The position numbers were made by a program, and so were the translations under genes. Below are positions 13,750-62,938 of a stretch of 64,000 bases of DNA, piece by piece. Numbering within the stretch: position 1 is the first letter of the stretch; every line of letters starts with the position of its first letter. Location of the stretch: NCBI RefSeq assembly GCF_023055435.1, contig NW_025964383.1:32550001-32614000 (forward strand), written 5' to 3'. Under the pieces are notes generated by a model. The model saw only the letters and a program-made list of their open reading frames with translations. It had not been told where the DNA came from and did not search any database. The DNA is from Haliotis rufescens. Taxonomy: Eukaryota.

Positions 13750-14959
13750 TATACCCTTTCAAAAAATGAAACGTAATACGGAAATAGTTTTGCCATAAAA
13801 GTAAAATTAGCGGACCAAGAGGTGCAAAATGAACACAAGGACACCCAGTGCATTAACAAAAGAGTCATGGAGCTGCACGTACTGCACGAGCAGAAGCACT
13901 AAGAACGGCATTTAAGTGCAGGGCCTACGAGTACCTTGCATCTGCGTCAGTCGAACAGTGACAGTTTAACAACATGCCAAGATTAACAGAAATGCAAAGA
14001 AACAACGTCATAGGCCGCTTGCAGGCAGAGGAATCCCGATCAGCTGTAGCCAGGGTTTTCAATGTAGCGCCCAGCAACACCACAAGGCTATGGGATCGGT
14101 TTCAACAGCATGCGTCAACACGTGATCGGCCACGGTCGGGACGACCAAGAGTAACCACCCCTGCAAAAATTCGCTACATCAACGCGTCATATTGAGTCGA
14201 CAACATCGTCAACAACGACTGCATTGGTGTATGGCTGCAACGACAGGGTATGGCCTCAACTGCGATGGAGATATGTCTGGTTCAGCGACGAATCAAGATT
14301 TCTCCTCCGTCGAGGGGATGGAAGAGCAAGGGTCTGCAGACGTCGGGGAGAACGTTACGCCGGAAACTGCGGACAGGAAGTGGACAGGTTTGATAGGGGT
14401 AGCGTTATGATGTGGGCTTATATCTCTCATCATGGCAGGACAGGTTTAGCCACTATCCAGGGCAATCTTATGGATTAACATACATCAACGAAATTCTCAA
14501 ACCATACGTCCCCCCAATTGCAGACAATGGCAACGGTGTATTCCAGCAAGGCAACCGCATGCAGCACGTCTACACAACAACAACGTTGATGTTCTCCCCT
14601 GGTCCTCCAGATCCCCGGATTTGAACCCGATAGACGCCTTTGGGATGATTTGGATAGACGGCTACGCCGACGTCAACCACAACCCCAGACGTTGCAGCAG
14701 TTGGCGTTGGCGTTTGCATTGCAGGCCGAGTGGGCTACCATTCCCGAGGATGTGATTCGCATACAACGGGGAACATACGCGTTATTGATGGTAGCTGACC
14801 TTCTACTTGGACTTTTCCTATGTACCGATAACTGAGATGACTACAATCACTAACCGTTCTCTCCACAACATTTTGGCTCAATACCTTGTACGGTTCCTGG
14901 TATAAATGTATTTTCCTACCTCACACAAATCTGGCTATGCTTTTTTTGAAGAGCATATA
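13750..14959 (+). mobile_element. Tc1/mariner DNA transposon with pseudogenised transposase
   Basis: HTH N-terminus MPRLTEMQRNNVIGRLQA...DRPRSGRPRVTT (13974), WFSDESRF, VFQQGN, SPDLNPI..LWD (frameshifted); degenerate TIRs tataccctttcaaaaaa (13750) and ttttttgaagagcatata (14959). Confidence 0.9.
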
Positions 14960-19377: not shown

Positions 19378-19659
19378 TTTGCTACATGGAAGGGGAGATA
19401 ATCGTCTACACTGGGATTGAAATTATGGAAACAGGTTAATATGTCAAATTATTCACAGTCCCCTCAGGCTGTGATGCAGCGATCTAAACGCAGATCAGAG
19501 TGCTAGATATATTTTGTATACTAAAATTTGTTCTTGTGAATATCATACCGAAGATTACTTCCACTTCTTTTTATGTGCACAAATTACTATGTTCTTCGAA
19601 ATGAAATGTATTTTTACCATCATGGTTACTCTTTACAAACGGTGTTATACGGAAATTCG

Positions 19660-20090
19660 TATTTTCAAAAGCCCTGGATCAAGGTAAAGAAGTAAGAGTT
19701 GGATTCTGTGACATTAGTCAGGCATTTGATAAAGTATGGCATGAAGGTTTGATACGTAAGTTACACTCTCATGGGATAAGTGGTAGGTCATTCGACTGGT
19801 TCAATAGTTACATGAAAGATAGAGTACAGCGTGGAGTGATCAATGGATACACCCCTGCTTTAGAATCTGTGTGTGCTGGCGTTCCACAAGGATCAGTATT
19901 AGGGCCATTACTGTTCTTAGTCTATTTAAATCTAGTTGCTGATAGTGATGGCAATATTAGATAATTTGCGGACGATACGTCCTTGTACATTAATATTGAT
20001 GATCCCAACATAAACGTTGCACAATTAATTGAAGATCTTGAAAGAGTATCACACTAGGCAGAAACATGGCAAGTAAAGTTTGATTTTTAA
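19660..20090 (+). mobile_element. CR1-clade LINE RT fragment
   Basis: FCDISQAFDKVWHEGLIRKL...GVPQGSVLGPLLFLVY...*FADDTSLY...WQVKF; in-frame stops. Confidence 0.9.
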
Positions 20091-29600: not shown

Positions 29601-32600
29601 ACTGGGTTACAGTTGGGTACTGCAACAACACACTGATGGGTACTGCAACAACACACTGATGGGTACTGCAACAACACACTGGGTTACTGTTGGGTACTGC
29701 AACAACACACTGGGTTATTGTTGGGCACTGCAACAACACTCCGGCGTTACAGTTGGGTACTGCAACAACACACTGATGGGTACTGCTACAACACTCTGGG
29801 TTACTGTTGGGTACTGCAACAACACACTGGGCTACTGTTGGTACTGGAACTACACACTGTTTGGTACTGTTGAGTACTGCAACAACACACTGGGTTACTG
29901 TTGGGTACTGCGACAACACACTGGGCTACTTTTGGGTACTGCAACAACACACTGGGTTATTGTTAGGTACTGCAACAACACACTGGGTTACTGTTGGGTA
30001 CTAAAGCAACACACTGGGCTACTGTTGGGTACTGCAACAACACACTGGGTTACTGTTGGGTACTGCAACAACACACTGGACTAGTGTTGCATTCTGCAAC
30101 AACACACTGGGTTACTGTTGGGTAATGAAACAACACTCTGGGCTACTGTTGGGTACTGCAACAACACACTGGGCTACTGTTGGGTACTGAAACAACATAC
30201 TTGGTTACTGTTGGGTACTGCAACAACACACTGGGTTACTGTTAGGTAGGGGGTACGGGTGGCCCAGTCATCTCAGGCGCCGCGATTCGCTGTGCGGAGT
30301 GGCGTCCCTTGGGCACGCCAGAAACCTATGATTGTGGGTTCGAATCCCTGTTCGCCCCGATTATGTTTCTAGGTTTGTCAGCACCATACCCGTGCTCGTG
30401 GGTTTCACCGGAGTGGTAAACGTCTGAGACCTGCATCACTTCGGCCTTTCCTCCCACATTGAGCTGACACGCTGCGATATAACTGGCCCTGTTAAAAGCG
30501 GCGTTAAACCCAACTCACTCACCCATTACTGTTGGATACTGCAACCGGCTAACATCCTTTGTTGAACACATGAAACTGATCATGACGATAACATGCATTA
30601 CATACACAGTTCATGTAGAGGTTGATATTGACACGGATCAAAGCAAAGACGATTAAAATTGGAACTAATTTCAGGAGAAGCTGAACGATATCCACACTGA
30701 GGACAGGCCGGAACTCCAGGACACAGATGTTGGCGAGGCAGAGAGTCGTAAGCATCTGTCTCAATTAACCAAATATATCAGATTTTATTAACAAATCAAG
30801 ATTTTGTTTCTCTACACTAGTGGTAAAACCTTTTCTTATACGAATTTTAGTGTTAATTTCAGCACAGGGAACATGATATATTCAGTCAGTCACGTGAAAA
30901 CATATCCACTGTTGTATATATTACAGTAATTGTTTCTTCTCCAGGTACGCAAGAGATTGAATCTCTAAATGAAGAATTGGGCAGTTTAAAATCGGTAACC
31001 ATTTCCATACTCTTACACTGTAAGAATTTTACACTCTTATCCATACAAGAAACAATATTTTTAGGTCGATTGTTCAAGCTACATTTATGTCAGATGTTTT
31101 AACTGATAATCAACTTTTACATCATCTTCAACAGAGAAATATGATGAGACTAAACCTATAATCTTGATGGAAACGATGATGCAAGTTCATTTGGTTTCAG
31201 AACAGAGATCACAAAACGAGACAACTCGACAAACTACAAACTGATGGTTTGACACACGGCAAGTGTAAATTTACTTAGGGCAGGACATGCTTTTCCTATT
31301 CGCGAATCGACACTGGTTATTCCCTGGCGTTATTATTTTATATGACACTAACAAAGGTCTTTCATACTATGCATCAACATGTTTCACAAGAGGACCTGAC
31401 TACTTTCCCCAAGTGTTACCCTTATATATTGGTACAAGTTAGAAAATGACGGTCTGTTCATATTACGCAAATTACTATTGAAATGCATTCTGAACATGTA
31501 TTTAAAACTTTGTCATGAAATACGGAGCGATAACGACATGAATATACTAATGGTGAATTAGCTTGAGTCCGGTTGTATATTCCTTTAGTTTAATGAGGAG
31601 ATAAAAACAGCTTAAGATGCGCCATGTGTCTAGTAACACATGTTATGATTAATACCTTGTATCCTCCAGTTGAGTGGCAGAACTCTATTGACTACTTGAT
31701 GAGGTACCCGGAAGTTCTATCCCTGTTTAATGTGGATCTGTCAGGACTGGACAGTGTTAGCATTTTCCATCGAGAAGACCAAGATAAAAGCAACCTGCAA
31801 AGAAGAATGACACACAGACAAAATACAGTCTCCTTGAAAGACTCAAAGCAGAGGGTAACAATTGCCTTCTTTTGACACGCTTCAATATGTTCATATACAG
31901 GCTAACGTGTATTGGTTATATAATTGTTGTTTTTCGCTGCTGTAAGAAATATTTCAACTCTATCATGGTGCTTGTTAGTGTATGATGCCACACAATCAAC
32001 CAACTGAAGGGTCAATGTGTTAAGTGTGAGAACAGTCTTTCAGGATAGCAGGATATGATTAATTTCATATTGAGATTCCAACTGAGTTAAAGGTGTCTTG
32101 GTGGATATGTGACTGTCCTGTTATTTAGGATTTGTCACTTATGATTAAGTTGTATCGGGCATTGGAGTCAGTTATACTATTCTAGCTGCATCTGTAGGCA
32201 GTAATATGTGAACATATATCAACCATACCAGAGATACATTGTATATTCAACAATTGGTTACTCAGATGTTTCACAACACAATAACAACAGCTGATTTTAA
32301 CGGCAGCCTATACCAAACATCAGACTCAACCATGTGAATTCACTCATAATCAGTTTCTTGGTTTGTCAGCGCAATACCTGTGTTCGTGGGTTTCAGGGAA
32401 CAGGTAAACGTCTAAGACCTGCATCAGTTCCAGCATTCCTCCCACATCATCAACCTGACAGGCTGTAATACAACATAAATACTGTTTAAGGCGGTGTTCG
32501 GCTATATTCACTTATCCACTCACTCACTCATTCTCATCAGTAACACCGATGGCTACATGTTTAATATGGTCATGGAAGAATTGAGATAAAAACATTTAAT

Positions 32601-35600
32601 GTAGAGCTATGTTAGCTCTAGATTTGTGATGGTGATAAATTGAAACTACCCGATGCCAAGTGTAAATGCTTCACATACAGAACAGAGATTGTAGAGGTAT
32701 GATCATGTGTACAATGTGCGAGAAGCGTTGTTTGTGATAAATCAAAACCCCGAATAATTATCCTTGCATTTGTACAGATGTTGTCTACTTTTTTTACAGT
32801 TCTCTGGCGCAACATCAAAACTGGTTGTAGTGGAAAGGGAAGCTGGATACACTGCACAAGGTATGAATGGATCATTGTCAAAGAATGGAATAAGTTTCAT
32901 AGCTGACTTGGCAGGAATTATAACTAAAATCATGTCATCTTCCTGTCAGTATAGGGGCACGGGTGGCCCAGTCGTCTAAGGCGCAGCGATTCGCTGTGCA
33001 GAGTTGTGTCCCTTGGGCAAGCCAGAAACCTATGATTGTTGGTTCGAATCCCGGTTCGCCCCGATTCTGTTTCTAGGTTTGTCAGCACCATACCCGTGCT
33101 CGTGGGTTTCACCGAAGTAGTAAACGTCTGAGATCTGCATCACTTCGGGCTTTCCTCCAAACGCTGCGATATACTGTTAAACCCAACTCACTCACTCACT
33201 CACTCACTCCTGTCAGTATAGTGAAACCTCAATTGGATGTGATTAACTTGTATTTAAACACATTCTCAACATGGAAAAGTACAGCAAAAAGTCTATAATC
33301 CTATCTAACACATGTATCAACACATTCTCTCAACACGTTATGTTCTGTGTAATCTACAGATGAACGTCACAGTCCCTACAGGTCTACAGGTCTTATTCAT
33401 CTTTTGAGGAGGTACCAGCTGGGCTCCCTGAAGGAAAGAGATTTGACCACACTTACATTTGAGGTATAAATGGGGACATAAGGTAAAACATTACTGAAAA
33501 GATACTGTCGGAAATAGAAAACAGAATTTACGTTTCGACCTTAATTGTTTGCGTTAATAATTGTTTGCCAATCATGGAAAAAACTAATTTTAAAGTTATT
33601 ATAACTGCGATTTGATAAGGTTAGACAATAACAAGGAGAAAAGGACAAACATGGAGTCTGACGTCCAGTGGAACAATGCCGAAATACTAACATTTATTTG
33701 AAAAATTATTGAATAAATGAGACATCAATGCAAATACAGATGTAGTTTTGTGCTCATAACGAAAAAACGACATAGTGTTACCACTACGCATAAATTCTAT
33801 TAGTTCTGATTCAAAGCAATAACGCCAGTTGTTGATGCGATATAGAACCAGATTCCCAACAAGGCCAGGGTATTTGTAACGAACAAATATGTATGCGATG
33901 TCACACCGTGAAGCTTGTCACTGGCTCTGAACGCCCTAACGTACTCTTCAATGTTTTCTAGGTGATGGCAGAAGACGAGCAGCGACTCGCGGATCTGACG
34001 GCAAAGAATGCCTCCTTAGAAAAAGGTTTGTAGATTTGATATAGCTGTACATTCAGATTATTCAAAGTATGCCTTGAATAATTCTTTTATATGGCACCTT
34101 GAACCATATATTTACGTGTATGTCAAATGTGGAGTTTAAATGTTAATATCGCTATACCCACACAAAACATGTAATTAGAACAGTATCCTGTCATTAAAAA
34201 TGGACGACAATGATAAGTTTTCCGCCGTTTTAAGCAAAAGGGCGTGTAAATCGCGAATGCTTATATGCAAGCAATAATAGTAACTGCTCTTCATATAAAG
34301 TTCAATAAAATTAAATTTATTCAAAATTTTAATAATGCATCTTTCAATAGACATTCATGAACATCCCCTCAACATTAAGATGCACGGCGCACGATTTGAA
34401 TGTTTGCATGTTTGTTGGGAGCCTGATATTCACACAATGCAAACAGCACGCACTGATTGTTAGCTAACAAGTGCTCATAAAAAACACTTTTGTCTTACCG
34501 TAAATAACCCTTGCCCAGTGCCACGGTTTGCCGAAAATCAAAGCAACCTGTTGAGGGAGCATCTGGCCCCGACGTCCAGCAACACGCCCATTTTTGTTCC
34601 CACGTCAACGTCAGGGACGTCTAGCTTGGTGTAGACAGCATCTGAGGTTCAGAAGACAGGCTTGGGACAGTATACGTGTTTACAGATGAGTCCAGGTTAC
34701 ATCTGGATAGCTCCGATGGTCGTGCACGCAAGCGTAACTCACATTTATAAATTGTTATTGCAAGAGAATAACTAGCCTAGGTTTTCTGCCGAAACAGATT
34801 CTTCTGGGCGTAAAGGGAAAATAGCAGAGGAAAAACTTCTCCTTGACGCCGTGCACGACCATGGAAGCTATCCAAATCAATCCCGGATATGTGAACAGTA
34901 TACTGTCCAAGGCTTGGAACGCTTGCATTACTCAACGTCGGCAATTTTAGGGACATAAGTGTAATGGTATGGGTTGCCATCACAACTTATGTTTGAACAC
35001 AACTTATCCAAGTTAATGGCAAATTGCGTAACCTACGGAACGTCACGTTGCAGAAGGATAATACCCACCAATATGTTACAGTGTCGCAACGGTCATTTTG
35101 AAGCGGCATAGCATTTCTGTGCTGCCATAGTTGGCTGTTTCTCCAGATCTCAAGACAATATAACATGTATGAAATGAGACTGAACGACGCCTACGGCAGG
35201 ACCAGATCCAGGTGTTAACGCCAGCTAAGTTGGACCAGTTAGCGCCAACTCGGGTGGGCCAGTTAACACCAGCTCAGTTGGGCCAGTTAGCGCCAGCTCA
35301 GTTGGGCCAGTTAGCGCCAGCTCAGTTGGGCCAGTTAGCGCCAACTCGGGTGGGCCAGTTAGCGCCAGCTCAGTTGGGCCAGTTAACGCCATGTAGGGAA
35401 TCAGACACGGCTCGTCTTCGTGAGGAGAGAATGAAATAAGCACCTGGCTATCCTACCGCTCACTGTTGCATGGTAGATCGTTCATAAAGTAGCATGCAGG
35501 GCTTTATCTAGCACAGCAAGCTGATTGATGTCTTTGTTCAAGGGACGAGCTGTTTAACGTCGGCTTGTCGGAATCTTTGAAAACATGTATAACGGAACAT

Positions 35601-38600
35601 ATCTCATGATTAATGTCACATAGAAAAGTTCCAATTTGTGAAGCTCGATTTATCGGTTACTTTTCTTAGTTGTTGAAGAGGAATTGTTTACTTTTCAGAT
35701 TTTGGAAGCACTGTACATATTGTTGGAGCTGAATGCCGGCCTGAAGCTATCTCATGTAAGTATTTCCTGGAGTGAGTTAGTGAGTGAGTGATGCCAATCG
35801 CTGATCTCAGTATTCATAGACTCCCTACTGACAATCACAGATCTCAGTATTCATAGATTCAGTACTGCCAGTCACTAATCTCAGTATTCATAGACTCCCT
35901 ACTGACAATCACTAATCTCAGTATTCATAGACTCCCTACTAACAGTCACTGATCTCAGTATTCATAGATTCAGTACTAACAATCACCGATCTCAGTATTC
36001 ATAGATTCAGTACTGACAGTCACTGACCTCAGTATTCATAGATTCAATACTGACAGTCACTGACCTCAGTATTCATAGATTCAATACTGACAGTCACTGA
36101 CCTCAGTATTCATAGATTCAATACTGACAGTCACTGACCTCAGTATTCATAGATTCAGTACTGGCAGTCACTGACCTCAGTATTCATAGATTCAGTACTG
36201 ACAGTCACAAACCTCAGTATTCATAGACTCCCTACTGACAGTCACTGACCTCAGTATTCATAGACTCCCTACTGACAGTCACTGATCTCAGTATTCATAG
36301 ATTCAGTACTAACAGTCACTGATCTCAGTATTCATAGATTCAGTACTAACAATCACCGATCTCAGTATTCATAGATTCAGTACTGACACTCACAGACCTC
36401 AGTATTCATAGACTCCCTACTGACAGTCACTGACCTCAGTATTCATAGATTCAATACTGACAGTCACTGATCTCAGCATTCATAGACTCCCTACTGACAG
36501 TCACTGATCTCAGTATTCATAGGTTCCCTACTGACAGTCACTGACCTCAGTATTCATAGACTCCCTACTGACAGTCACTGACCTCAGTATTCATAGATTC
36601 AGTACTGACAGTCACCCATCTCAGTATTCATAGACTCCCTTCTGATAGCTGCTGATAGCTGTATTAGTGGAATCATAGCGACCGAGCTCGGTATCCACAG
36701 ATCCTAACATCCACGATATGCACCACAGTGTAATTCAAAGGGATACCTGATTGCTTTACCTGTTTACAGGAGATGAGTTGTACTTCGTCTCTTCCAGAAT
36801 ATGTTGGGCTGAGATTAATGCATCACAGTCATGTCATAGCGAGTCAATTCTGCACAGCCAACCATTGTACATACATAAGTGTGATGCGGTTCTTTAACGG
36901 TCGGGCCCGTGAAGATCTGGGGTTAGAATAGGTCTTCGGCAACCCATGCTTGCCCTAAAAAGGGCGACTATGCCTCGTAAGAGGCGACAAACGGGATCGG
37001 GTGGTCAGGCTCGCTGACTTGGTTGATGCTTGTCATCGATCCCAATTGTGTGGATCGATGCTCATGATATCAATCACTGGAGTGTCTGGTCCAGACTCGA
37101 TTATTTACAGACCGCCATCATATAGCTTGAATATTGCTGAGTGCGGCGTTAAACAACAAACAGACAAACAACATTAACAGTCGTGTGGCGTAGCTGTTGT
37201 TTACTTCCTGAGTGAGAGCTTTGCGTTCACACACTGAATGTGTAATATTTCTACTCAAATCTATCGGGGGTGTAAGCCTTGGAGGTTTTTTTTGGTCAAC
37301 TGAATACTCCGTTCCAGAGGTGATTCCTTTTTCCTGTGGTATTTTTTGTAATGACTGAAACGGACGTAAAATATTAGCCAACATCTTTCCTGAAAACAAA
37401 AGTTTTCAATTGTATTCCAGGCGGGAAAATTTACAAATATTCTTGACTTTCGTTTTAACTTCTGAACGTTCGGTAATGTATAAAGAAGCAATTTGAATGC
37501 ATGATAAATTCTTTCTGTGAGTGAGAAAAATGATCTTTCTGTCCGAAGTTGATCTGTACAGTGCACTGTGCAAGGCTCTTTAAAAAGTGTTGGACCCTAC
37601 ACCAGTATTTTATCAATCGCACATTATTTTAGGACATACTGATGGATATTGTAAGAACGATATAACCCTGAACAAAGATGTATATATGTTCTCAATCAAA
37701 GGTTATTCAATTGCTTTAACATGACATTAGTTATAGTATTACATCATCTTTTAGCCTGAAAGATCAAGCAAATATCTGAAAAAATTATTGTCAATTTCAC
37801 ACTACCAGTGATCCATTCCTGAAATTCTGGAGAATTTAGAACTATTCACAAAGGTGTTGTATTTAAATATGCTTAACCATTACACCAGTGAAGATCCGGA
37901 TAAGAATAGATCTTCCACAACCCATGCTTGTCGTCAGAGGCGACAATGCGTGTCGTAAGAGGTGACTAACGGGATCAGGCTCTCTAACATGATTCGTGCA
38001 TGTCATCATAACCCAAATGCGTGGATCGATGCTCGTTATTGTAATCACTGGAATGTCTGGTCCAGACTCGATTATTTACAGACCGCTGCCGCATAGCGGT
38101 AATATTGCGGTTTTGAGTGCGGCCTTAAACAACAAAACCCTTCTTTATTGCAATAGGCTTTTGTCAGCTTTGACTGAATCTCTATAACAATTCTTGTATA
38201 AGTACAATTATACAATCATGAATCTTATTCATTCTACACTGGAATAACTCAGAAAGCTGACGTTGTTGACGGACTTGCGACATCAATCACTGACCAGCGC
38301 TTGTGAACATTCCGCGACACACAGACTGTGACGATGTAACGGTGAAAGTGACTGAAGCGGACATAGAATATACCTGTTCATGCGGTGTATGATGAACAAA
38401 AAAATGTCAAAAATATCCTAAAACATGGAATTTTGTGGTTTATTTTTATCTTCTTTCGTAAAAGATTCATATAGAATCCACACACAAACACTTTTGTTGG
38501 GAAATTCACTCACTGAGGCCGTATTTCATACACGAACATCGTCCACGTCTGGCAGATATCTGCACAATGGGGGTAAATCAAAAGTGTACCAAAAATTCTG

Positions 38601-39557
38601 TTACATTGCCTTTTTCTGTGAATTATTCTATTTGTTTCTTAATGAAATGCATTTTGAATTCTCGTAGTAATAGTTTTACATTGTAATTAGCGCGCTAATA
38701 TAGCGCAGTTGTTGGAGATATTCTGTACTGATGAAAAACACAGACGAACATTCAGCGCGCTGTTTGGTGACAAGCAAACAATCAGCCGATATTTTCAGTA
38801 AATCTCTTTCTGTGTCTCAGTTTGTAACAAACAGTGAAATAAACTTGCTACACAACAAATACAATGTTTATTTCCAGGTCCTAAACGTCACCTGGACGCG
38901 GCTGGGGCCAACACAAGATACTGCCACGTAACTACAGACGGTCAGCTGGTCAACTCGCGGCTCGCCATACGGTATAAGAGGCGGAACAGACTACAGAGGT
39001 ACTGGGGGACCTGTAGCTCCCCCATCCCCCTTCCTCCACCCCCCTCCACCCTCAACCCCCACCCCACCACATCAACATACTGGGAGACAGAGACCAGGGT
39101 GCGGGTGGTGGAGGGAGTGCCGTGGTATGTCCTGGAGATTGGGGTTGTGGAGGCAGGACAGGTGGACAGTGAGTACTGTGTTTCTCTACAGCGTCGCTCC
39201 TGGAGTGTCAGTGTAGACAGATGTGACAGACACAGGGAGAGTTTCTGTACCACGGTGTGTCGGGAGGGGGTGCCGGGCGAGTGTCACCAGAACACCATGT
39301 CCCGCACTCCCGGCGCACAGGCCACCCTCCACTATGGCGTGGTGCTGGATGTGGGGAGGGGGAGAGTGGCCTTCATTGACTTGGACAGGGGGATTGTTCT
39401 TGGCAAGTATGATGAGGTGTTCCGGGAGCCTCTTGTCCCCATGTTTGGTGTTGGGCGGCTGTCATCCCTCCGCTCTGTGGCGATGAGTCTGATCAGCGGT
39501 GAGGATGTCGACATGACAGACACCAAGAGGGCCCTCGTCTACCAAGCGCTGAGATAG
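20685..39557 (+). CDS. Multi-exon gene: putative coiled-coil stalk plus C-terminal B30.2/SPRY-like domain (5' end unresolved)
   Basis: Phase-compatible GT-AG exons: 20685-20734, 20932-20974, 21158-21243, 21524-21599, 22173-22252, 22372-22435, 24362-24520, 24927-24982, 30675-30747, (30945-30994), 31670-31854, 32800-32860, 33360-33463, 33962-34025, 35699-35755, 38878-39557; open frame of about 610 codons if 30945-30994 and a disrupted exon near 31135 are skipped. Confidence 0.7.
23955..24235 (+). repeat. Tandem ~160-bp direct repeat resembling a Penelope pseudo-LTR with minimal hammerhead-like motifs
   Basis: Two copies of gcttg(t/a)caacgg...tataccgaaacgtc...ttgttatccata.attttctctactttgt, with CCGAAAC at 24014 and 24174. 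Confidence 0.5.
25196..30248. repeat. 31-bp satellite array (~160 copies) with 1024-bp higher-order repeat, intronic
   Basis: Unit ctgggttactgttgggtactgcaacaacaca; identical variant blocks offset by 1024 bp (27404/28428, 27597/28621, 27746/28770, 27991/29015). Confidence 0.97.
30249..30522 (+). mobile_element. tRNA-headed SINE (family A)
   Basis: A-box tggcccagtc..ct.agg, B-box ggttcgaatcc, tail gcggcgttaaacccaactcactcac; homologous to copies at 32955, 59898 and 62971. Confidence 0.85.
32955..33207 (+). mobile_element. tRNA-headed SINE (family A) with 14-bp TSD
   Basis: TSD tcctgtcagtatag at 32941-32954 and 33208-33221; A/B boxes; (ctca)n tail. Confidence 0.9.
35215..35392. repeat. 24-bp minisatellite (~7 copies)
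   Basis: Unit ccagctcagttgggccagttagcg. Confidence 0.9.
35795..36655. repeat. 37-bp minisatellite (~23 copies)
   Basis: Unit ctgacagtcactgacctcagtattcatagattcagta with an alternative ending gactcccta. Confidence 0.95.
36906..37172 (+). mobile_element. Short retroposon family B (no tRNA head)
   Basis: cccgtgaagatc.gggttagaataggtcttc...gtaagaggcgac...ggtccagactcgattatttacagaccgcc...gcggcgttaaacaacaaac; at least nine copies in the window. Confidence 0.85.
37885..38135 (+). mobile_element. Short retroposon family B
   Basis: Homologous to the 36906 copy. Confidence 0.85.
38878..39557 (+). CDS. Terminal exon encoding B30.2/SPRY-like domain
   Basis: Acceptor ttccag at 38877; open frame CPKRHLD...YWETE...LEIGV...YGVVLDVGRGRVAFID...FREPLVPMFGV...ALR*; SPRY hallmarks YWE, GV, GV.LD..G.V.F, F..PL.P.F; AATAAA just after the stop. 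Confidence 0.8.
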
Positions 39558-39769: not shown

Positions 39770-40085
39770 GTAATATTGTTATGATGAATCTATTGCTGTA
39801 GTTGCTGAAATTATGTCACAGCAACAACTTTCTGAAATGTGATGTGACACAGGAGTGAGTGCACAGACAAAATGTAAAATTTCTTTCAAAACAAGATTTC
39901 TTCTGCTTATATTGATTTAATACTATAAAATTAGTGTTTTAAATCCCCACATGACTATTGTTACGATGAAATTATTGCTGTAGTTGCTGAAATTATGCCC
40001 AGACAAAAATGAGCACAGACCAAATGTAAATAAAAAGTTGCTTCGAAACAGATTTCTTCAGCATATATTGATTTAATGCCATAAC
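39770..40085. repeat. Imperfect ~180-bp tandem duplication downstream of the SPRY gene stop
   Basis: attgtta.gatgaa..tattgctgtagttgctgaaattatg...gcacagac.aaatgtaaa...atattgatttaat at about 39775 and 39957. Confidence 0.7.
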
Positions 40086-40300
40086 ATAATTAATTCCAAA
40101 CCACACATTATACTGTTTAGATGGGATTGTTGATGTAGTTGTGGAAACTAAACTGCCACAGAAAATGAAAGTCAACCTCAATGTCTGATTCTGGCAAAAT
40201 GTTTAACAAACAAGAAATGATTATTCCACTGTGATGTACTTGATACAGGGATCCTGGTGGTGTTCTGTACCTAGTCACGTATATGTGTAATTGTATATGT

Positions 40301-45800: not shown

Positions 45801-46365
45801 TTGGAGAATTCTCATCATGACAATGCAATGTGCAGATGTAATTATGCCTCATTATTGTACATGAATATGAGCTGGACACTCCTGTCACGTAGCAGCAGAT
45901 TGTACGTCCGTAGGAAGCAAGACGCCCCAGCCCAGGATCTCAACCAAGACCTTGTACTTTCTGTGCCCATTTTACTTGGTAGGGAATACAAGACAAGACC
46001 ATCAAAACAACATGATCAGTTTGACTGAGGCTAATTTGGCCTGGACAGGAAGGTTCAACCATATCTTATAATTAGGCTTCTTTCTTGTCAATCCGATCAA
46101 AGAATGTACACAAGTCATCAATCGTGTATTTATATTATTAACTGTTTCATATCCTTGAAATAATGCCTGGTAATCAATGCAAACTGATACTTCAGATTTG
46201 GGGAGTTTAATTACTATAGCCATATCAAGCCTCATTTGAGTCATGACCATGTTGTGTTCAGCATACAGCAATATGGGCCACTCCATATCTAGTCACACCA
46301 GACAGGTGGGCCACGCTATGTTCAGAGGATGCCTCAACCAGATACAAAGCAAGATTGAACACCTT

Positions 46366-46690
46366 CACACCAGACAGGTGGAAATGACCAAGATGTATAC
46401 AGCATCTGGCTGAAGACCTACAGCAAGATGGGACACCTCCACACCAAACAGGTGTAACTGACCAAGATGTAAAAGACATCTGGCTGAAGACCTACAGCAA
46501 GATGGGACACCTCCACACCAGACAGGTGGAACTGACCAAGATGTAAAAGACATCTGGCTGAAGACCTACAGCAAGATGGGACACCTCACTACCAAACAGG
46601 TGCAACTGACCAAGATGTATACAGCATCTGACTGAAGACCTACAGCAAGATGGGACACCTCCACACCAAACAGGTGCAACTGACCAAGAT
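46366..46690. repeat. 74-bp minisatellite (~4.5 copies)
   Basis: tgaagacctacagcaagatgggacacc recurs at 46411, 46485, 46559 and 46633. Confidence 0.9.
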
Positions 46691-49539: not shown

Positions 49540-50285
49540 AAAGTGACTCCTTCCTCCTCCATGACTGCATGAGATGTAGGGATGCAAGGTCAAGGATGGA
49601 GAAAGTGACTCCTCCCTCCTCCATGACTGCATGAGATGTAGGGATGCAAGGTCACGGATGGAGAAAGTGACTCCTTCCTCCTCCATGACTGCACGAGATG
49701 TAGGGATGCAAGGTCACGGATGGAGAAAGTGACTCCTTCCTCCTCCATGACTGCATGAGATGTAGGGATGCAAGGTCACGGATGGAGAAAGTGACTCCTT
49801 CCTCCTCCATGACTGCATGAGATGTAGGGATGCAAGGTCACGGATGGAGAGAGTGACTCCTTCCTCCTCCATGACTGCATGAGATGTAGGGATGCAAGGT
49901 CACGGATGGAGAAAGTGACTCCTCCCTCCTCCATGACTGCATGAGATGTAGGGATGCAAGGTCACGGATGGAGAAAGTGACTCCTCCCTCCTCCATGACT
50001 GCATGAGATGTAGGGATGCAAGGTCACGGATGGAGAAAGTGACTCCTTCCTCCTCCATGACTGCATGAGATGTAGGGATGCAAGGTCACGGATGGAGAAA
50101 GTGACTCCTTCCTCCTCCATGACTGCATGAGATGTAGGGATGCAAGGTCACGGATGGAGAAAGTGACTCCTCCCTCCTCCATGACTGCATGAGATGTAGG
50201 GATGCAAGGTCACGGATGGAGAAAGTGACTCCTTCCTCCTCCATGACTGCATGAGATGTAGGGATGCAGGGTCTGGGTGGAGAAA
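49540..50285. repeat. 62-bp minisatellite (~12 near-identical copies)
   Basis: Unit aaagtgactccttcctcctccatgactgcatgagatgtagggatgcaaggtcacggatggag. Confidence 0.97.
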
Positions 50286-52262
50286 GGATAAGCCTTGACA
50301 GGAACTTGGCAAATGTCATGACTTCAGGCATCTCCAAACAACTGCAGATCATTGACAACATGTTCGAAATTAGAAGCATGGTCACAGTTGGAGATGGTGA
50401 TAACACAATATTTGCTCAAGTTCACCTGAATGTTCATCTGAGAGGTTGTTCCTCTTTCGAAAGAAGTCGCAAGTCGTTCCATAGACTTGAACAATGTCCA
50501 GCTTCTGGAAGCTTTCACTGTCACATCAGTGAAACATTTCTCCTTAGTTTGTCCTTGACGTCCACTATGAGGACTGTCCAATGGTCACATGACTTCTGTC
50601 TGGCTTGACCATTACTTGATGTCCAGTCCTAAACATCAGCTTGGCCTTCAAGCTTTTCTTGTTGGCTGGTGTCCAATGATTATTGGATATTGTCTGTCCA
50701 ACGGACATGTTGGTTGTTCATCCATAAGGATGTAATTCTCTGTTGTTGGATTCCCATCAAGATGTAAGATAAGCTGCATCAAAGTCCCTGTCATTTTGGG
50801 GGAAAGTTTACAGCAGTTCGTATGTAGCAGAATACATTTACTGCACTTTACAATATCTGCTATTAAATTAAACTGTTAAAGCCAATAACATTAAATAGCC
50901 AACAATTATTACATGTATAAGATTTCTTTTTTCTGATAAGTTTTCAGAATCTATTTTGTTTTAGAAAAATAAAAATAGAAAATAAAAAAATATATATATC
51001 CCATCCACATCTTCTCTGTTACATTGTCCTAGTCATGAGAGAAGACTGAACACTATTCTACAGGGATAATTATTGGTAGAATGTAGACTTAGTATCTTAC
51101 ATCTTGTGGAAACAATGAGATAAACAGGTGTCATCTCATATATAGTCGGTACAATTCAGATTTCTTTTCTTGTGACAGGAATCCATCACTGACAAAACAA
51201 ATCTCGTATTATGCATTTACAATAATATGTTCTCTACACAAGAAATTATTCAACAGAAGGGTGACTTTCATTCAATGTGAGAGTAACAATAAACAGCATA
51301 CTGTAGTATGTATTGATTCAACAATCCCAAAAAGCTTGTTTCGAATAAAATAGTTTGGATGACACTTTCAAATGTATAATATGGCCATAGCTTCACAATT
51401 ACTCCATATTCCAGCGTACGATATGGCGTAATGCTGGCAGTTAGTCTATGTTCAAATGGAAACTGATACAGATATCTTTTTATGATGCATATTAAAGTAG
51501 TCGCAAAGGTGGTGCAAAACAATTCATAATAAACAGCAGCTTATAACATCTGTGACATCCTAGCAATTCAAAGCTAAAGGAACTGCATCTGGAACAATGG
51601 TTTCTATTACCATCAAAACAAAATTATGCTGTTAGCATTTAAAATTTTACACTTTAGAGAAGAAAGTAGACTAGTGGTGGCTCTTTGAGGGCAAACTTCT
51701 GTAGCAGCGGTCTTCATTGGCACCTTCTTCATGTAAGCTGCACCATAACGCTGAAGACACTCCAAATAAGTCAAGTCGCAAGTTGGATTCAGCTTCAGTG
51801 TGTCCATTATCGATTTTAATGTCACAAGAGTGCTCTCCCTTTACAAGAGTGCTCTCCCTTTACAAGAGTGCTTTCCAATTGCCTCCATTCTCTCCAGGCA
51901 CAGGTTTTAAGTTCTTCAGTCAATCAAAATAATTTATTGTTTCAACACACACAACTTGTCTCAGTTAACATAAGCTTTATGCACTAATACTACACTTCTA
52001 GAGAATTTCTATTCACAAAATTTGGCAACCTCAGCAGCAAATTTTCATCAGTGGTTTGTGTCGCCATTTTGGAGTACACAAATCTTTCAGGTATAAAACT
52101 CTCGCCAGCACTCATCAATAACTGAGATAACAAACCAGGTTGGGGTTAGCACTAACTGCACTGTGTGTGGGAGCACAATTGGGCTAGCTCATGCAGTAGA
52201 TCACTCACTCAGTCATGGTAATATAAGTACTTTGCACAAGGATTGTCCAGAGGGAGACCACT

Positions 52263-55700: not shown

Positions 55701-58700
55701 ACGAAGGATACAGATAAAGGTAACTATCACATAATGGCTTGTGTTATTGAGCGAGGAACCAGGATGATACACTTAGTATCACGATCTGATAAATACACAA
55801 ATGGGGTCACCTAGCAGGAACTACTTTCAACATGTTCACGCTCCAGACATCGTTGCAATGATTGTTTCTCAATGAACTATGTACTAATGTACCCAGTATG
55901 CAGGGGTTTCATAATGTGTCGCCGCGTTTCTGTTTGCAAACATGGCTGCTAGTCATGTGGCACTATATGATGAACTGGGCGGTTCACTCAAACGTATTCA
56001 TACACGGTTTCTAAAGCCACAGACTTATATAAGACCGTGCTAAAGCTAATTCATTGAGTGAAATTCTGTCTTAAAATTCCATTATTTTAACATAGATATT
56101 ACATGATAAAGAGATTATTACCCTGTCTTTCCGTATTGTATATATCATATGATTATTGAAATGTTAATGTTTATTCCTGATATGTGATATCTACAATATG
56201 GAAACACACGAGTAATAATAACTATGAACTGTAAGCCAGACATAATAAATATAGCTCATGTCATGTTGTATGACTGAGTGATTCATGTCTCCCCGTAAAC
56301 ACATTGTCTTTTCCAGTGAATGAATAACATCCAATACTGATATGCTGATATGTGATTAATCTATTTTGTTTCTCATAATAATTTATTATCTTCCCAAATT
56401 TTTTGTTATTTTGCCACATTCCTATTTCAATATTGACAAAGAAAACCATATGCTTTTTTTTCTGAATAAAAAACGCATTTTCAGAACTTGTCTTCCTTTT
56501 GCAGTCTATACAAGTTCAAGTACTGCCCTATCTGTGTTTATACATACAGTGAACAATTCAATGAGTTACATCATTCCTTTGTGAGGGGCAAATACCTTAT
56601 GCTGCGGTACACACTTTATTCATCAATTGAAGAATGAACTGTTCTTAATATTTGCTTTCATTGCTTTCCCGCACATCATAATCAATATGTCAAGCAGCAG
56701 TATGCAACACACCATTCCCTATGAAGATTCCCAAATCTATTCATGCTGACTGACATGCTACAGTGACACTTACCCGAGTCTCTACGAGATGAGTACCCAG
56801 CGTACCTCCCCCTACCACGCCCTCTCCGGTAGCCACGCCCCCTTCCACTCAAAACACTGTCAGTCAAGTAGCCGGATGTCCGCCTCTCTTCTGCCATCAC
56901 TTCCGCTGACCAATCACCAACAGGCTCTGGAGACGTCGCTTCATCCCCTGGTACAGAGGCAGAGAGGTGAGGTGAAGTGGGGTTTATCGTCACGTCCAAG
57001 ATGCTTGCTCTCGTATAAAGTCTGTGTGTGTGTGCTGTGTATGTGATGGTGTGAGATNNNNNNNNNNNNNNNNNNNNNNNNNNNNNNNNNNNNNNNNNNN
57101 NNNNNNNNNNNNNNNNNNNNNNNNNNNNNNNNNNNNNNNNNNNNNNNNNNNNNNNNNNNNNNNNNNNNNNNNNNNNNNNNNNNNNNNNNNNNNNNNNTGT
57201 GTGCGTGTGTGACTCATGCCAATTTTATAGTGACGGACCAAACACTGTTTTTATCCACTTAGGCCACCTCAAGTATAGCAACATCATGATGGGAAGACCC
57301 TTAGAGAAGCATCCCGGAAATTGTACCACAGTGAGAAATCAAACCATGGTCTAGATTAGCAAATACCACAAGGCTACCCTACTGCAGTGTTCTAAATAAG
57401 GCTGGTGGCAGGTAGATCTTGTGTCGGGCCTGTAGTTTCAAATATGTATGGGTTCTTTAGGCCTGCAGTAAAAATAAGTGTCAATTTATTCGTGACAATA
57501 AGCTGCAGATTTCTAAATGATGGCCTGAAGAGTTTAGTCAGGGCCTGCAGTCTGTGCTACTGTCTACTGTCCTATTTTGGTTCTGAAGTCATCAGTTCAT
57601 CTCACCAGTATTCATGCCATGCCTCTCCGTTGCCCATCTCCGGCCTCGTCCCATGCCACGCCCACCTCGACCACGCCTCCCTCTTTCATCTGAGTATGGG
57701 TCATTGCTCCCTCTGAAATGTAATCATACGTCAAACGAACTGAAGCAGACACTGAATGGTCCACCCAAACTGTCCTTCGCATGGTAGGATATTCAGTTTC
57801 CAGATAGATACAACATGACAGAAAACTACATTTTACGGATAAGGAAGCTTTTGAACTTCAGACTTGAAAATTGTAAATCAAACAGTGTGAACGAGTAGGG
57901 TCATAAGCACATAAATGGCTTACTCAAACTCAGGGGGCATATCAGCCTTGGGGAGAAATCACACCTGGGTTTTAGACCGCAACTCTCCCCTTCATGACTC
58001 TTACAATAAACAAGCTTACAATAAAGAAAATCAAACCCAGGTTTTTGGTTAGTAAAGATGGAGTGCTATAACTGTGAGGCTAGCCCATCACTTCAGAACA
58101 GACAATAGCAGACCAGTAATAGAGTAATGAGTTGCCTTCAAACAAAACATACGAACCTCCTTTCCCGTGGTGGGGGGAAGTAGGGCCCAGACTGGGGGCC
58201 AGAGAGACTCTTCAGCTGTTGGTCTATCTCCTGCTTCGCTTGTCGCAGTTGCTCCACTTCCTGTAACAAAACAAAGGAACATGCTTCTCACTGATGGGAC
58301 ATATAGGCATCTGATGCAGCATTTGAAATTCGCACTAATGCTGTAGTCCTTGCCAAACTGCCCAGTAGTTAAGGTATCATAAGGACCAGTAGAAATATAC
58401 CATTTTCAAGGGTTTTGCAATATGTTATCATTATAAGGTTGCTTGGTTTGTTGTTTAACGCCGCACTCGGCAATATTCCAGCTTTATGACGGCGGTCTGT
58501 AAATAATCGAGTCTGGACCAGACAATCCAGTGATTGATATCATGAGCATCGATCCATGCAATTTGGATCGATGACATGCATAAACCAAGTCAGCAAGCCT
58601 GACCACCCAATCCCATTAGTCACCTTTTACGGCATGGATTGCTGAAGACCTATTCTACCCCGGATCTTCACGGGTCTAGGACTAGTGGACAAAAACATGT

Positions 58701-61700
58701 TAGTTTTTACCACCCAGATGGATATGCAGCTTTCATTATGCTTCAAACTTCTCAGGAGTGTTACAAGCTGGTTGCTAACTACAGTCATTTTGAAATTGTT
58801 TCGAGAAACTGAAATGCCTCTTTTATCACAACAACCTTGTGGTATTTAACATAAATTTCAAATACCAAATTATCACTTCACCAAAGAAACAGAGAAATTA
58901 CAGTTTCACTTTTTTTCATTGTATAAGTTTCACAGCCATGTGGAAGAGAAAGTACTTACCCTTAAATGTGTTAAGTGGTAGTCTAATAACAGCTGTGCAT
59001 TTGCAATACTTTCTACAGTTCCCACGAAAATAAAAGGCACCTGTCCCTGAAACTCAAAGGTCTGAAAAACAGTCAAGATCTGATCATCTTGCAATTTGTT
59101 TATTTGTTTGTTGTTTAACGCCATACTCAGCAATATTCCAGCTATATGACGGCGGTCTGTAAATAATCAAGTCTGGACCTGACAATCCAGTGATTGACAT
59201 CATGAACATCGATCCACGCACTAAGGTCAGTGAGCCTGACCACCCGATCCCGTTAGTCGCCTCTTACGACAAGCATAGTCACCTCTGACGGCAAGCATGG
59301 GTTGCTGAAGACCTATTGTACCCCGGATCTTCACGGGTTTGATCATCTTGCAATTTCATCATGTAAAGAATGAACTGCTAACAGCTATCAGAAAACTGAC
59401 ACTTAATATCACAGTCAAGACAATGATCAACTGCAAACATAGGCTTTTCGTACAAACAGTATACAGGATCTGGTTCCGCAATTTAACCAAACAAAAGTTT
59501 CCATCAGACATACAATGCAACTATACTGAACAAGATAATTAATAATCAACTTTTGTGTTGTATTGTTAATACCTCTTCTCTTGGCTGGTCAGTTTCGTTG
59601 TCCCCCTCAATTTTGACCCTCACAACACCCGACTTGTCCACTATGTCTTGAATGTTTCGACCATTCTTCCCTATCACTTTGGCTGAAACAAGACAAGTCT
59701 CATATTCAAGTGGTACATGAAGCAATGTTTTTACCTTTTCAATAATGCTTTGTCAAGGGGGAAAACATGTGGTGTTGACTGTGTACAGGGTTTTACTAAA
59801 CTTATAAACACAACAGAGCTCACATTTTCAAAGAAGGATGAGAGAGTGGGTGGGTGGGTGAGTGGGTGAGTGAGTGAGATGTGTTAACATCACTTTTGAG
59901 TGAGTGAGTTGGGTTTAACGCCGCTTTTAACAGTATTCCAGTTACATCACGGCGAGTCAGCTTAATGTGGGAGGAAAGCCCGAAGTAATGCAGGTGTCAG
60001 TCGTTTACCACTTTGGTGAAACCCAGGGGCACGGGTATGGTGCTGACAAACCTAGAAACATACCGTATTTTCTTGAGTATAGTGCGCACCCATGTATAAT
60101 GCGCACCCCCCTCTAGCGGGTTCAATATTTGATCGCGAGAATTTCATGTTGACATAGAATCGTCAAACAAAAACAAATATGACTTTTATTGAGTCAAAGT
60201 ATGTCATTTATGATATATGTATCGATTCTCTGTCAACTAAAGTTCGTTTCAAGGCGTCAATAGCGGTATTCTGACCGTGGTTGCTGTTAATAACGGTGAG
60301 TTGTGCGATCTTCCGATCGCTTCACACACGATTTCGCCAAAATTAATAAAAACAATATTATAAGGAATTTTGAATAAAATTAATGAAATAAGTTACAAAC
60401 ATAAGTCCAGATATACAAAGAACACTTTTTATAGCCAGACAGTGTAATTACATGATTATTTTGCGTACTTCAGTATGGATTTGTTGACATGGTATTTCCG
60501 GTGTTTCGTGCTCACGGTAATGTCTTTCCATGGGGGAAAAAAACATCCAAACTCATAATTCGTGTATAATGCGCACCCCCTTCTACACAGCTGTGTTTTT
60601 TCGAAAAAAAGTGCGCACTATACTCAAGAAAATACGGTAATTGGGGCGAACTGGGATTCCAACCCACACTCAGAGGGTTCTAGCGAGCCCAAGGGACACA
60701 ACAGTGCAAGCGAATTGCTGCACCTTAGAAAACTGGGCCACCCGTGCCCTTGGAGAGTGGGTGAAGGCGTCTAAAATTAAGTCAGCAATAAAAGATCTTT
60801 AAAAAGAACCTAGGTGTGTGCATGTAAGTTGTTGTTTTTTACAGTTTGGAAATAATCGCTCATGTCCAGGAAATAATAGTAGATGATTGCATGGTCCTAA
60901 CTGTCGCCACACAATAATTCCTCACATGTTTTGTTTGTTTATTTAATGCCACACTCCGCAATACACCAGTGATATGATAGTGGAGGTGACAATCCAGTGA
61001 TTGATATCACGAACAACAATCCACGTCGTCATGGTACAATGACACACAAAGAACTAAGTCAAAGAGGCTGACCACCCAATCCATTAAGTTGCCTCTTAAT
61101 GGCCAGCAGAGGTTGCTTGTGACCTATTCCAACCCAGAAGCATGACAGGGTTGTGGAAGCCACCATACAATCAGTCAAGGTGTAATTACACCTTAAACCA
61201 GTCCAGAGACCAAACTATATTCAATCCAAACAGTCTGACAGTGTTGACAAGCATTGTATTCAGCCTCATACAACTGAGATGTATTTTGCTGCTTGAATAC
61301 GAAAACCAGGAATAACCTACATCAATGAAGACCGCTTGTGCCCAATAAATACACTGGCTGACTCAAATATGTCTTTGTTTCTTGATACTTACCCACTAGA
61401 TCTCTTGGGACTTGAAATGTCTGTTCAGCAAATTCTAACATGTTTCTAGCTTGTTTTACAGCTTCTGGAGTCTGAAATTCATGAAGGCAAAAAGTTGAAA
61501 ATGTATAACTGGTATGTTTCTCCCAGAACCCTGGATTCTGTCACTCCCAAGCTTAAGTACAAGTTCAAATATTAAGCAGCCTTAGCTTTAGACTTTTTAA
61601 CTTTAGAATGATTACAATGGGGGCCTTCCAAAATAACATACAGACATAACTATTAAAAAAGTTAATCACAGCCTTTTACAAATTAAAGTAGGATTTGTTA

Positions 61701-61923
61701 AATCAACATTACCAAGAACATAAATCTGCCATGTAACACGTGTCCATCATCTCACCTCTCCGTACACTTTAAACGTGCATGTATTCTCGTCAAGCTCGAT
61801 GCCAGTGATTCCCTCTACTTTGCGAGCCTGTTGAATGTTAGCACCGTGTGTTCCAATAGCCAGGCCCATCAGGTCGTCCCGTACACAGAACTCCTCCATG
61901 AACCCCGACCGGATCTTGGTGCT
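52263..61923 (-). CDS. FMR1: Fragile X messenger ribonucleoprotein 1 homolog (FMR1/FXR family), 3' part; 5' exons outside the window
   Basis: In-frame GT-AG exons 61923-61756, 61471-61393, 59682-59573, 59046-58960, 58260-58157, 57712-57606, 56947-56774, (54393-54319), 53367-53266, 52762-52263; KH1 [20 protein letters not shown]2 [41 protein letters not shown] boxes, VNG terminus. Confidence 0.97.
52975..53140 (-). mobile_element. tRNA-headed SINE family D
   Basis: B-box ggttcgattcccc, body gtgtgtgaagcccatttctggtgtc, shared ggaatattg tail. Confidence 0.75.
53266..53367 (-). CDS. FMR1: FMR1 exon
   Basis: [33 protein letters not shown], similar to FXR RRRRTDED.VL motif; 102 nt. Confidence 0.88.
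54319..54393 (-). CDS. FMR1: Candidate FMR1 cassette exon (75 nt, phase 1-1)
   Basis: ctctgtttggcag/ ... /gtatgt; open frame [25 protein letters not shown]. Confidence 0.45.
56774..56947 (-). CDS. FMR1: FMR1 exon, DWS motif plus RG-rich box
   Basis: [57 protein letters not shown]; /gtaagt. Confidence 0.88.
57058..57197. other. Assembly gap (140 N) within a TG-rich SINE-like segment
   Basis: Run of N. Confidence 1.
57606..57712 (-). CDS. FMR1: FMR1 exon, RG-rich
   Basis: [35 protein letters not shown]; phase-compatible; /gtgag. Confidence 0.88.
58157..58260 (-). CDS. FMR1: FMR1 exon, NES/coiled-coil
   Basis: [34 protein letters not shown]; 104 nt. Confidence 0.93.
58443..58676 (-). mobile_element. 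Short retroposon family B
   Basis: Reverse-complement homology to the 36906 copy. Confidence 0.85.
58960..59046 (-). CDS. FMR1: FMR1 exon, KH2 C-terminal part
   Basis: [29 protein letters not shown]; 87 nt; /gtaagt. Confidence 0.96.
59098..59339 (-). mobile_element. Short retroposon family B, full length with 17-bp TSD
   Basis: TSD tgatcatcttgcaattt at 59081-59097 and 59340-59356. Confidence 0.92.
59573..59682 (-). CDS. FMR1: FMR1 exon, KH2
   Basis: [37 protein letters not shown]; 110 nt. Confidence 0.97.
59898..60750 (-). mobile_element. tRNA-headed SINE (family A) interrupted by a MITE
   Basis: Family A sequence resumes exactly across the 60061-60639 insertion (aaacctagaaaca TA attggggcgaac). 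Confidence 0.85.
60063..60637. mobile_element. Non-autonomous Tc1/mariner-superfamily (pogo/Tc2-like) MITE
   Basis: Perfect 27-bp TIR ccgtattttcttgagtatagtgcgcac, TA target duplication, subterminal direct repeat gtataatgcgcacccc, no ORF. Confidence 0.92.
61393..61471 (-). CDS. FMR1: FMR1 exon, KH1/KH2 junction
   Basis: [26 protein letters not shown]; 79 nt; tttcag/ and /gtaagt. Confidence 0.96.
61756..61923 (-). CDS. FMR1: FMR1 exon, KH1
   Basis: [56 protein letters not shown]; cag/ and /gtgag; 168 nt. Confidence 0.97.
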
Positions 61924-62938
61924 CTGAACATGGACAATGGAACATTTCTTTCACATGACCTACACACGTGACACCCTGACCGGATCTTGGTGCTCTGAAC
62001 ATGAACAATGGAACATTTCTTTCACATGACCTACACACGTGACACCCTGACCGGATCTTGGTGCTCTGATCATGGACAATGGAACATTTCTTTCACATGA
62101 CCTACACACGTGACACCCTGACCGGATCTTGGTACTCTGAACATGGACAATGGAACATTTCTTTCACATGACCTACACACGTGACACCCCAAATGGACCT
62201 TGGTACTCTGAACATGGACAATGGAACATTTCTTTAACATGACCTACACACGTGACACCCCGACCGGATCTTGGTACTCTGAACATGGACAATGGAACAT
62301 TTCTTTCACATGACCTACACACGTGACACCCCGACCGGATCTTGGTACTCTGAACATGGACAATGGAACATTTCTTTCACATGACCTACACACGTGACAC
62401 CCCGACCGGATCTTGGTACTCTGAACATGGACAATGGAACATGGACAATGGAACATTTCTTTCACATGACCTACACACGTGACACCCCGACCGGATCTTG
62501 GTTCTCTGAACATGGACAATGGAACATTTCTTTCACATGACCTACACACGTGACACCCCGACCGGATCTTGGTACTCTGAACATGGACAATGGAACATTT
62601 CTTTCACATGACCTACACACGTGACACCCCGACCGGATCTTGGTACTCTGAACATGGACAATGGAACATGGACAATGGAACATGGACAATGGAACATTTC
62701 TTTCACATGACCTACACACGTGACACCCCGACCGGATCTTGGTTCTCTGAACATGGACAATGGAACATTTCTTTCACATGACCTACACACATGACACCCC
62801 AAACGGATCTTGGTACTCTGAACATGGACAATGGAACATTTCTTTCACATGACCTACACACGTGACACCCCGACCGGATCTTGGTACTCTGATCATGGAC
62901 AATGGAACATTTCTTTCACATGACCTACACACGTGACA
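61904..62938. repeat. 71-bp tandem array (14 units) containing the FMR1 KH1-exon splice acceptor
   Basis: Unit gacaccccgaccggatcttggtactctgaacatggacaatggaacatttctttcacatgacctacacacgt; two units carry extra 14-bp sub-repeats. Confidence 0.97.

Follow-up and report, generated by a model that had tools for sequence, protein, structure and literature searches.

Which of 14 tandem copies of one 3' splice site is used in splicing, and what do the other 13 do? The question is raised by the minus strand of a 64,000-nucleotide stretch of Haliotis rufescens contig NW_025964383.1 (the whole of the DNA analysed, hereafter the window), in which the end of an intron and the start of the exon that follows, encoding part of a KH1 domain, are repeated as a minisatellite. 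Arrays of this layout are known from amphioxus as "mirages": in BflGb6, the 3' end of an intron and exon 2's 5' portion are tandemly repeated, with 6 and 3 units in two haplotypes (PMC3087553).

A 14-unit minisatellite spans the 3' splice site of the KH1 exon

In the assembly, minus-strand positions 62938-61903 resolve into 14 head-to-tail units, 12 of 71 bp, one of 85 bp and one of 99 bp. Each unit consists of 50 nt of the intron 3' end and 21 nt of the KH1 exon start, with 1-3 nt of microhomology, so that, as in a mirage, every one of the 14 units spans an intron-exon boundary while only unit 14 runs on into the KH1 exon. Within the pyrimidine tract, a nested 14-bp piece occurs in one additional copy in the 85-bp unit and in two in the 99-bp unit. 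Sequence changes follow an order from unit to unit, one being common to units 11-13 and another to units 12-14, as expected from minisatellite turnover; in their exonic part, the units differ at positions +3 and +18. A sequence-only reading of the locus had described a 71-bp array copying the 3' splice site of the KH1 exon 14 times, and this description holds; its division of the unit into 51 nt of intron and 20 nt of exon is corrected here to 50 and 21, and its decoy acceptor coordinates were wrong by one base. The features of the array are as follows (sequencing runs X2, X8, X15 and X16 are introduced below):

61903..62938, minus strand: minisatellite of 14 units, the final unit being the authentic intron/exon junction (tandem-repeat analysis; head-to-tail joint in X2, X8 and X15, in variant form in X16)
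61974..62938, minus strand: 13 decoy units, each with an acceptor (sequence; acceptor-extension reading; local splice matrix)
62888, 62817, 62746, 62647, 62576, 62505, 62420, 62349, 62278, 62207, 62136, 62065 and 61994, minus strand: first "exonic" bases of the decoys
61923, minus strand: first exonic base after the authentic acceptor
61924..61973, minus strand: authentic intron end (tract and AG), source of the unit's intronic portion (sequence; junction use in spliced contigs)
62650..62697, minus strand: nested 14-bp sub-repeat, 3.4 copies, in the 99-bp unit (tandem-repeat analysis)
62423..62456, minus strand: nested 14-bp sub-repeat, 2.4 copies, in the 85-bp unit (tandem-repeat analysis)

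The peptide encoded by the exon at 61923-61756 is 100% identical to an H. rufescens FXR1-like protein, P0003, and matches the PDB structures of FMR1 (E 8e-24) and FXR1 (E 1e-21). P0003 carries the Pfam entries Agenet, KH0, KH and FXMRP1_C. Joined together, ten exons of the window match P0003 over 507 codons with 0 mismatches, and the protein reads directly across the array junction without insertion; the upstream exons and 5' end of the gene lie beyond the end of the window (past base 64000). Judged by sequence, from the KH1 match and the full-length family homologue, the array-bearing gene is a member of the FMR1/FXR family. The parts of the gene in the window are:

61756..61923, minus strand: 168-nt phase-0 exon encoding the linker of the FMR1/FXR protein and the beginning of its KH1 (protein match; spliced contigs in X15 and X16)
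61750..61755, minus strand: authentic donor of the 168-nt exon (local matrix score 8.6, authentic range 3.5-10.7; the spliced joint skips 284 nt)
61471-61393, 59682-59573, 59061-58960, 58260-58157, 57712-57606, 56947-56774, 54393-54319, 53367-53266 and 52762-52263, minus strand: nine more coding exons (0 mismatches to P0003)

The array is present in public sequencing runs

Four of the 24 listed public runs (X2, X8, X15 and X16, from three studies and under two organism labels) were compared with positions 61200-61975, a stretch that contains only the last array unit; contig depth gives no copy number. This choice of runs omitted the best DNA run, a possible source of the window, as well as three raw-read RNA rows (small-RNA libraries); X15 and X16 come from one study and were taken to be RNA by guess. 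The head-to-tail joint, at which the sequence goes back 71 positions, was present in all four. In the DNA run X2, the contig with the array joint had a depth of 75.1, compared with 14.8 in the flank, and in X8, which bears the second organism label, the corresponding depths were 71.2 and 29.9, with the upstream flank of the array present as a loose end. The joint in X16 had a variant form whose letters match unit 10. Positions 61865-61901 were uncovered in X2, as was the downstream intron in X16. The dominant unit types and the depth ratios vary among the runs, a weak hint of allelic variation from contigs that give no copy number.

These data bear on whether the array is an artefact of assembly, which the sequence-only reading had named as an outcome that would refute it. 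The copy number of 14 is that of the assembly, and the window contains a single N gap (140 bases, 57058-57197, within an FMR1 intron). Against an artefact stand the ordered private variants borne by the units and the recurrence of the joint across three studies and both organism labels; because the joint occurs in a DNA run and in X8, under the second label and with the same upstream flank, the existence of the array is upheld, and we regard an artefact as extremely improbable.

Within the downstream intron, at window positions 61651-61658, X15 (organism A) and X8 (organism B) share two substitutions and an inserted stretch of 55 letters that the window and X2 lack.

Assembled spliced RNA joins the upstream exon to the last acceptor

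X15 and X16 both yielded spliced contigs, in which the joint skips the 284-nt downstream intron and the intron ends are GT-AG. In the main contig of each run (depth 29.3 in X15 and 18.1 in X16), letters of the upstream exon abut 61923 and are followed by the subsequent exons, and these upstream-exon letters encode the residues that precede the junction in P0003. The main contigs show no break where a decoy product would diverge, and the table of loose ends for the two runs contained one upstream-exon contig per run and no decoy-joined contig, in assemblies that lose rare forms. Regular splicing thus appears undisturbed, as in a mirage, in the sense that the dominant contig uses 61923 in two of two spliced runs, minor isoforms being invisible in contigs. 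The earlier proposal that exon definition would rescue the last acceptor fits these junctions, which lead from the upstream exon to 61923 in either spliced run. As the published mirage arrangement, however, it is not new.

Array sequence was also found in both spliced runs, at depths of 9.85 versus 29.3 for the spliced contig in X15 and 14.3 versus 18.1 in X16, depth being a poor measure. A contig of the downstream intron in X15, at a depth of 3.05, suggests unspliced RNA or DNA background. X16 had no intron contig, so decoy use in that run is not separable from background. Any leak to the decoys would be invisible in these data, because contigs drop rare variants and substrates of nonsense-mediated decay (NMD) are depleted in steady-state RNA. 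The spliced contigs of X15 and X16 each differ from the window at one position close to an end of the exon piece (61756-61926); candidates are the final base of the upstream exon and the synonymous exon position +3, which varies among units.

Acceptor strength and AG scanning are unlikely to single out the last copy

We scored the splice sites with matrices built from only 21-23 sites of the window; the donor matrix rests on 21 local donors, with authentic scores of 3.5-10.7 on leave-one-out. All 13 decoys retain the AG, and the local acceptor score, 5.9 for the authentic site, is 5.9 in ten decoys, 3.0 in two and 7.7 in one (61994), indicating that the copies keep their splice signals, as those of mirages do. 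The description of the 13 acceptors as near-identical is therefore apt for the ten that score as the authentic site does and less so for the two with a weaker tract and for 61994, which is stronger. In the 1.06 kb of intron upstream, there are 69 other AGs, three of which score as well as the true acceptor by this small local matrix.

AG scanning starts at the chosen branch point and not at the 5' end of the intron. The AGs at -24 and -36 make it likely that a branch point lies inside the unit. Since the decoys score like the authentic site and each unit would hold its own branch point, neither strength nor scanning from branch point to AG would select the winner. The expectation that first-AG scanning would favor upstream sites was a misreading, as every unit has a tract and an AG of its own and a further 69 AGs lie upstream.

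Exon size, by comparison, does differ between the authentic site and its copies. Paired with the donor at 61755, the decoys would define exons of 239-1133 nt versus 168 nt for the authentic acceptor, and all 22 mapped internal exons in the window are 50-185 nt long, with introns of 119-5692 nt. RNA structure was rejected as a mechanism that masks the decoys, as the predicted fold over the last four units and the exon start showed nothing unusual (z -0.21).

Premature stops in predicted decoy products occur at chance level

Extension of the exon to any of the 13 decoy acceptors leads to a premature stop, 84-958 nt upstream of the exon end, with nine extensions frameshifted and four in frame. 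In every case the stop lies more than 50-55 nt upstream of the downstream junction, the position at which alternative splicing is coupled to NMD (AS-NMD), but this is expected by chance. The intron end itself contains two stops in the frame of the exon, which make every in-frame extension non-productive:

61951..61962, minus strand: in-frame TAG (61962-61960; -39) and TGA (61953-61951; -30) in the intron end

Because of this TAG and TGA, none of 3416 hypothetical duplications at this junction was productive. Among shuffled 71-nt units, 360 of 20000 were productive, and the other mapped acceptors in the window gave 0 of 23 with the same geometry and 14% averaged over all geometries. The idea that the non-productive frames are "designed" was therefore rejected. 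We also rejected a canonical splice product in which a decoy would supply the initial 21 nt and the true exon everything after them, as the last unit has no AG at the place needed.

These results qualify the view that every extra acceptor is nonproductive: all 13 extensions do stop, but each of the 13 decoys also offers an in-frame, stop-free micro-exon of 27 nt. Micro-exons of 14, 20 and 35 nt had been listed as out of frame, which is so, but the list omits the 27-nt option. Similarly, the statement that in-frame decoys run to the TAG in the last unit describes the extension from 62136, while the other three of the four in-frame extensions stop earlier.

The upstream copies are probably silent passengers

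What was observed directly is that the array exists, that other samples contain it and that the dominant junction lies at 61923. We consider it probable that the locus is a junction-spanning mirage minisatellite in which splicing, as seen in the assembled RNA, goes to the last acceptor and the 13 copies before it are lost with the intron as silent passengers. The array may have originated by a 71-bp tandem duplication at the short microhomology that exon position 21 shares with intron position -50, and could then have expanded and turned over by slippage or unequal exchange, as neighbouring units have variants in common and the 14-bp piece is re-duplicated inside two units. The winning copy would be the one that pairs, across an exon of normal size (168 nt), with the strong donor at 61755, and the one followed by real exon sequence, where the decoys return to intron after 21 nt. 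A rare slip to a decoy would yield an mRNA with a premature stop, likely cleared by NMD, and the array could be tolerated at small cost because such slips would be NMD substrates.

One point against silence also speaks for a leaky array, in which decoy splicing would rise with copy number and lead through premature stops to NMD, so that allele length would tune FMR1 dosage: the nearest decoy, 61994, equals or exceeds the true site in strength (7.7 versus 5.9), and the 239-nt exon that it would define is not of extreme size. All 13 extensions are eligible for NMD by position, both spliced runs contain array sequence, the dominant unit types vary among runs (a weak hint of allelic variation), and human TERT provides an example of intronic VNTRs that shift splicing and NMD (PMC11830802). 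Neither of the two spliced runs contains a decoy junction contig, however, the premature stops are at chance level, and, as far as the reports go, the published mirages (PMC3087553, PMC3902484) and the CBS 844ins68 duplication (PMC2630376) splice normally. The peptide of one in-frame extension shares no words with database proteins of 103-2000 residues, which, the search being a weak one, counts only slightly against the idea. The repeat-length-dependent AS-NMD rheostat suggested by the sequence-only reading thus finds no support here, its stops being expected by chance and the contigs containing no decoy junction, and we consider a leaky array unlikely.

A nascent micro-exon is the other functional alternative: a decoy acceptor together with a GT 27 nt downstream would, in some tissue, add the residues STKIRSGCH to the linker before KH1. 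An example of this option is:

61968..61994, minus strand: potential 27-nt in-frame, stop-free micro-exon with GT, in unit 13 (local donor score 5.4; 4.4 in unit 2)

In each decoy unit the GT at +27 is the best-scoring donor (4.4-5.4), inside the authentic range, by a matrix that is itself small, a point that weakens the argument. Annotated FMR1/FXR isoforms of two other molluscs insert residues at exactly this junction, the equivalent of 61923 (seven in frame in P0018 of Littorina saxatilis and six in P0052 of Mya arenaria), and since these isoforms carry extra residues there, the linker before KH1 appears, from the protein sequences, to tolerate insertions. A route to exon gain has been proposed for mirages (legend to Fig. 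7 of PMC3087553). On the other side, no use of the 27-nt cassette was seen in the abalone spliced contigs, the insertion being absent from the main contigs of X15 and X16 and from P0003, and exons of 27 nt usually need dedicated enhancers. We think it quite improbable that the array is used in this manner. A wider proposal, in which the array is a live polymorphic splice regulator, with longer alleles giving more decoy use and NMD and with the in-frame 27-nt micro-exon before KH1 in some tissues, also seems to us unlikely; if true, the locus would be a mirage observed while it turns into an exon, as well as a dosage dial for the abalone fragile-X gene. Silent removal with the intron remains our preferred explanation.

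A turtle FXR2 record (P0078) has seven extra residues at the same junction, and an alternative acceptor or micro-exon before KH1 is possibly recurrent across these records.

Comparison with known repeats at splice sites

The abalone array is an example in a mollusc of an arrangement already in print, and its principle is known. In BflGb6, RT-PCR suggests normal splicing, and gain of exons or introns from mirages has been proposed (PMC3087553); further amphioxus mirages are described in Adh (Adh3), troponin C (TnC) and PGBD5 (PMC3902484). The likeness extends to the tandem unit of intron 3' end and exon 5' part, the retained splice signals, the terminal position of the authentic junction, the normal mRNA and the turnover of units. 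The abalone array differs in its host, a mollusc, and in its dimensions, 14 units of 71 bp compared with 6 or 3 of 150-160 bp in BflGb6 and of 10-72 bp in Adh3.

A close parallel in humans is CBS 844ins68, a 68-bp duplication of an intron/exon 3' junction in which the downstream copy is used and the mRNA is normal (PMC2630376). The two share the duplicated 3' junction, an almost equal unit size and use of the downstream copy, but CBS has two copies and the abalone gene 14. Silencing by G runs and hnRNP H is reportedly involved in CBS 844ins68. The abalone G run is also present in the authentic exon. On the donor side, the 37-bp VNTR in intron 7 of human F7 contains 5-9 identical donors, of which only the exon-adjacent one is used (PMC1557585); there, too, the end unit spans the junction and the exon-adjacent site is chosen, whereas the abalone array lies on the acceptor side. 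When beta-globin 3' sites were duplicated beside an exon of 14, 55 or 205 nt, splicing was inefficient and only the distal site was used, in vitro and in one study (PMC5389562).

Intronic VNTRs that modulate splicing include TERT VNTR6-1, which shifts splicing and NMD via G-quadruplexes (PMC11830802), and the ABCA7 VNTR (PMC5954066). TERT VNTR6-1 and the abalone array are both intronic minisatellites near splicing events, but the former works by G-quadruplexes and not by copied acceptors. Another abalone gene has an intronic minisatellite that is polymorphic in length (PMC6905558). Our literature search found papers on Haliotis minisatellites and introns, none of them on junction arrays, and no paper on the abalone FMR1 array locus.

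In fragile X, a CGG trinucleotide in the 5' UTR of human FMR1 expands and silences transcription. The abalone repeat is not a short CGG-type repeat in a 5' UTR; it has a 71-bp unit, lies mid-gene at an internal intron/exon junction and shares with the human expansion only the gene family. The link to fragile X is nominal, and the suggestion of a different kind of repeat expansion in a fragile X gene does not carry beyond that shared family.

The locus extends mirage arrays to a mollusc, which is of modest importance. It is also a natural substrate, in a conserved gene and with 13 near-identical decoys, on which to ask to what extent exon definition by itself determines the acceptor that an invertebrate chooses, and whether copy number costs expression.

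Other arrays and genes in the window

Minisatellites are common in the window. Of eight longer TRF arrays tested, one, the array described above, sits on a mapped exon boundary; none of the other seven does, the nearest boundaries being 46-5573 nt away:

25193-30248: tandem array, 31-bp unit
35214-35391: tandem array, 24-bp unit
35801-36645: tandem array, 37-bp unit
39885-40168: tandem array, 156-bp unit
46348-46690: tandem array, 74-bp unit
49540-50286: tandem array, 62-bp unit
51824-51876: tandem array, 19-bp unit

On the minus strand the 62-bp unit, which is situated some 2 kb beyond the FMR1 stop, includes a tract and AG resembling those of an acceptor. An intron of the neighbouring gene has an open frame of 88 codons that contains the 24-bp array. 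The remaining features of the window are:

20687-39557, plus strand: multi-exon gene with a 100% match to H. rufescens LOC124127832 (P0122), 14 exons, 0 mismatches, first exons left out
6243-9042, minus strand, and 5187-5627, 13962-14835 and 19605-19964, plus strand: open frames that by eye resemble pieces of LINE endonuclease/reverse transcriptase and Tc1/mariner transposase

The gene matching LOC124127832 has one GC donor, at 31259, and belongs to an expanded abalone family whose relatives include proteins annotated as TRIM/B-box.
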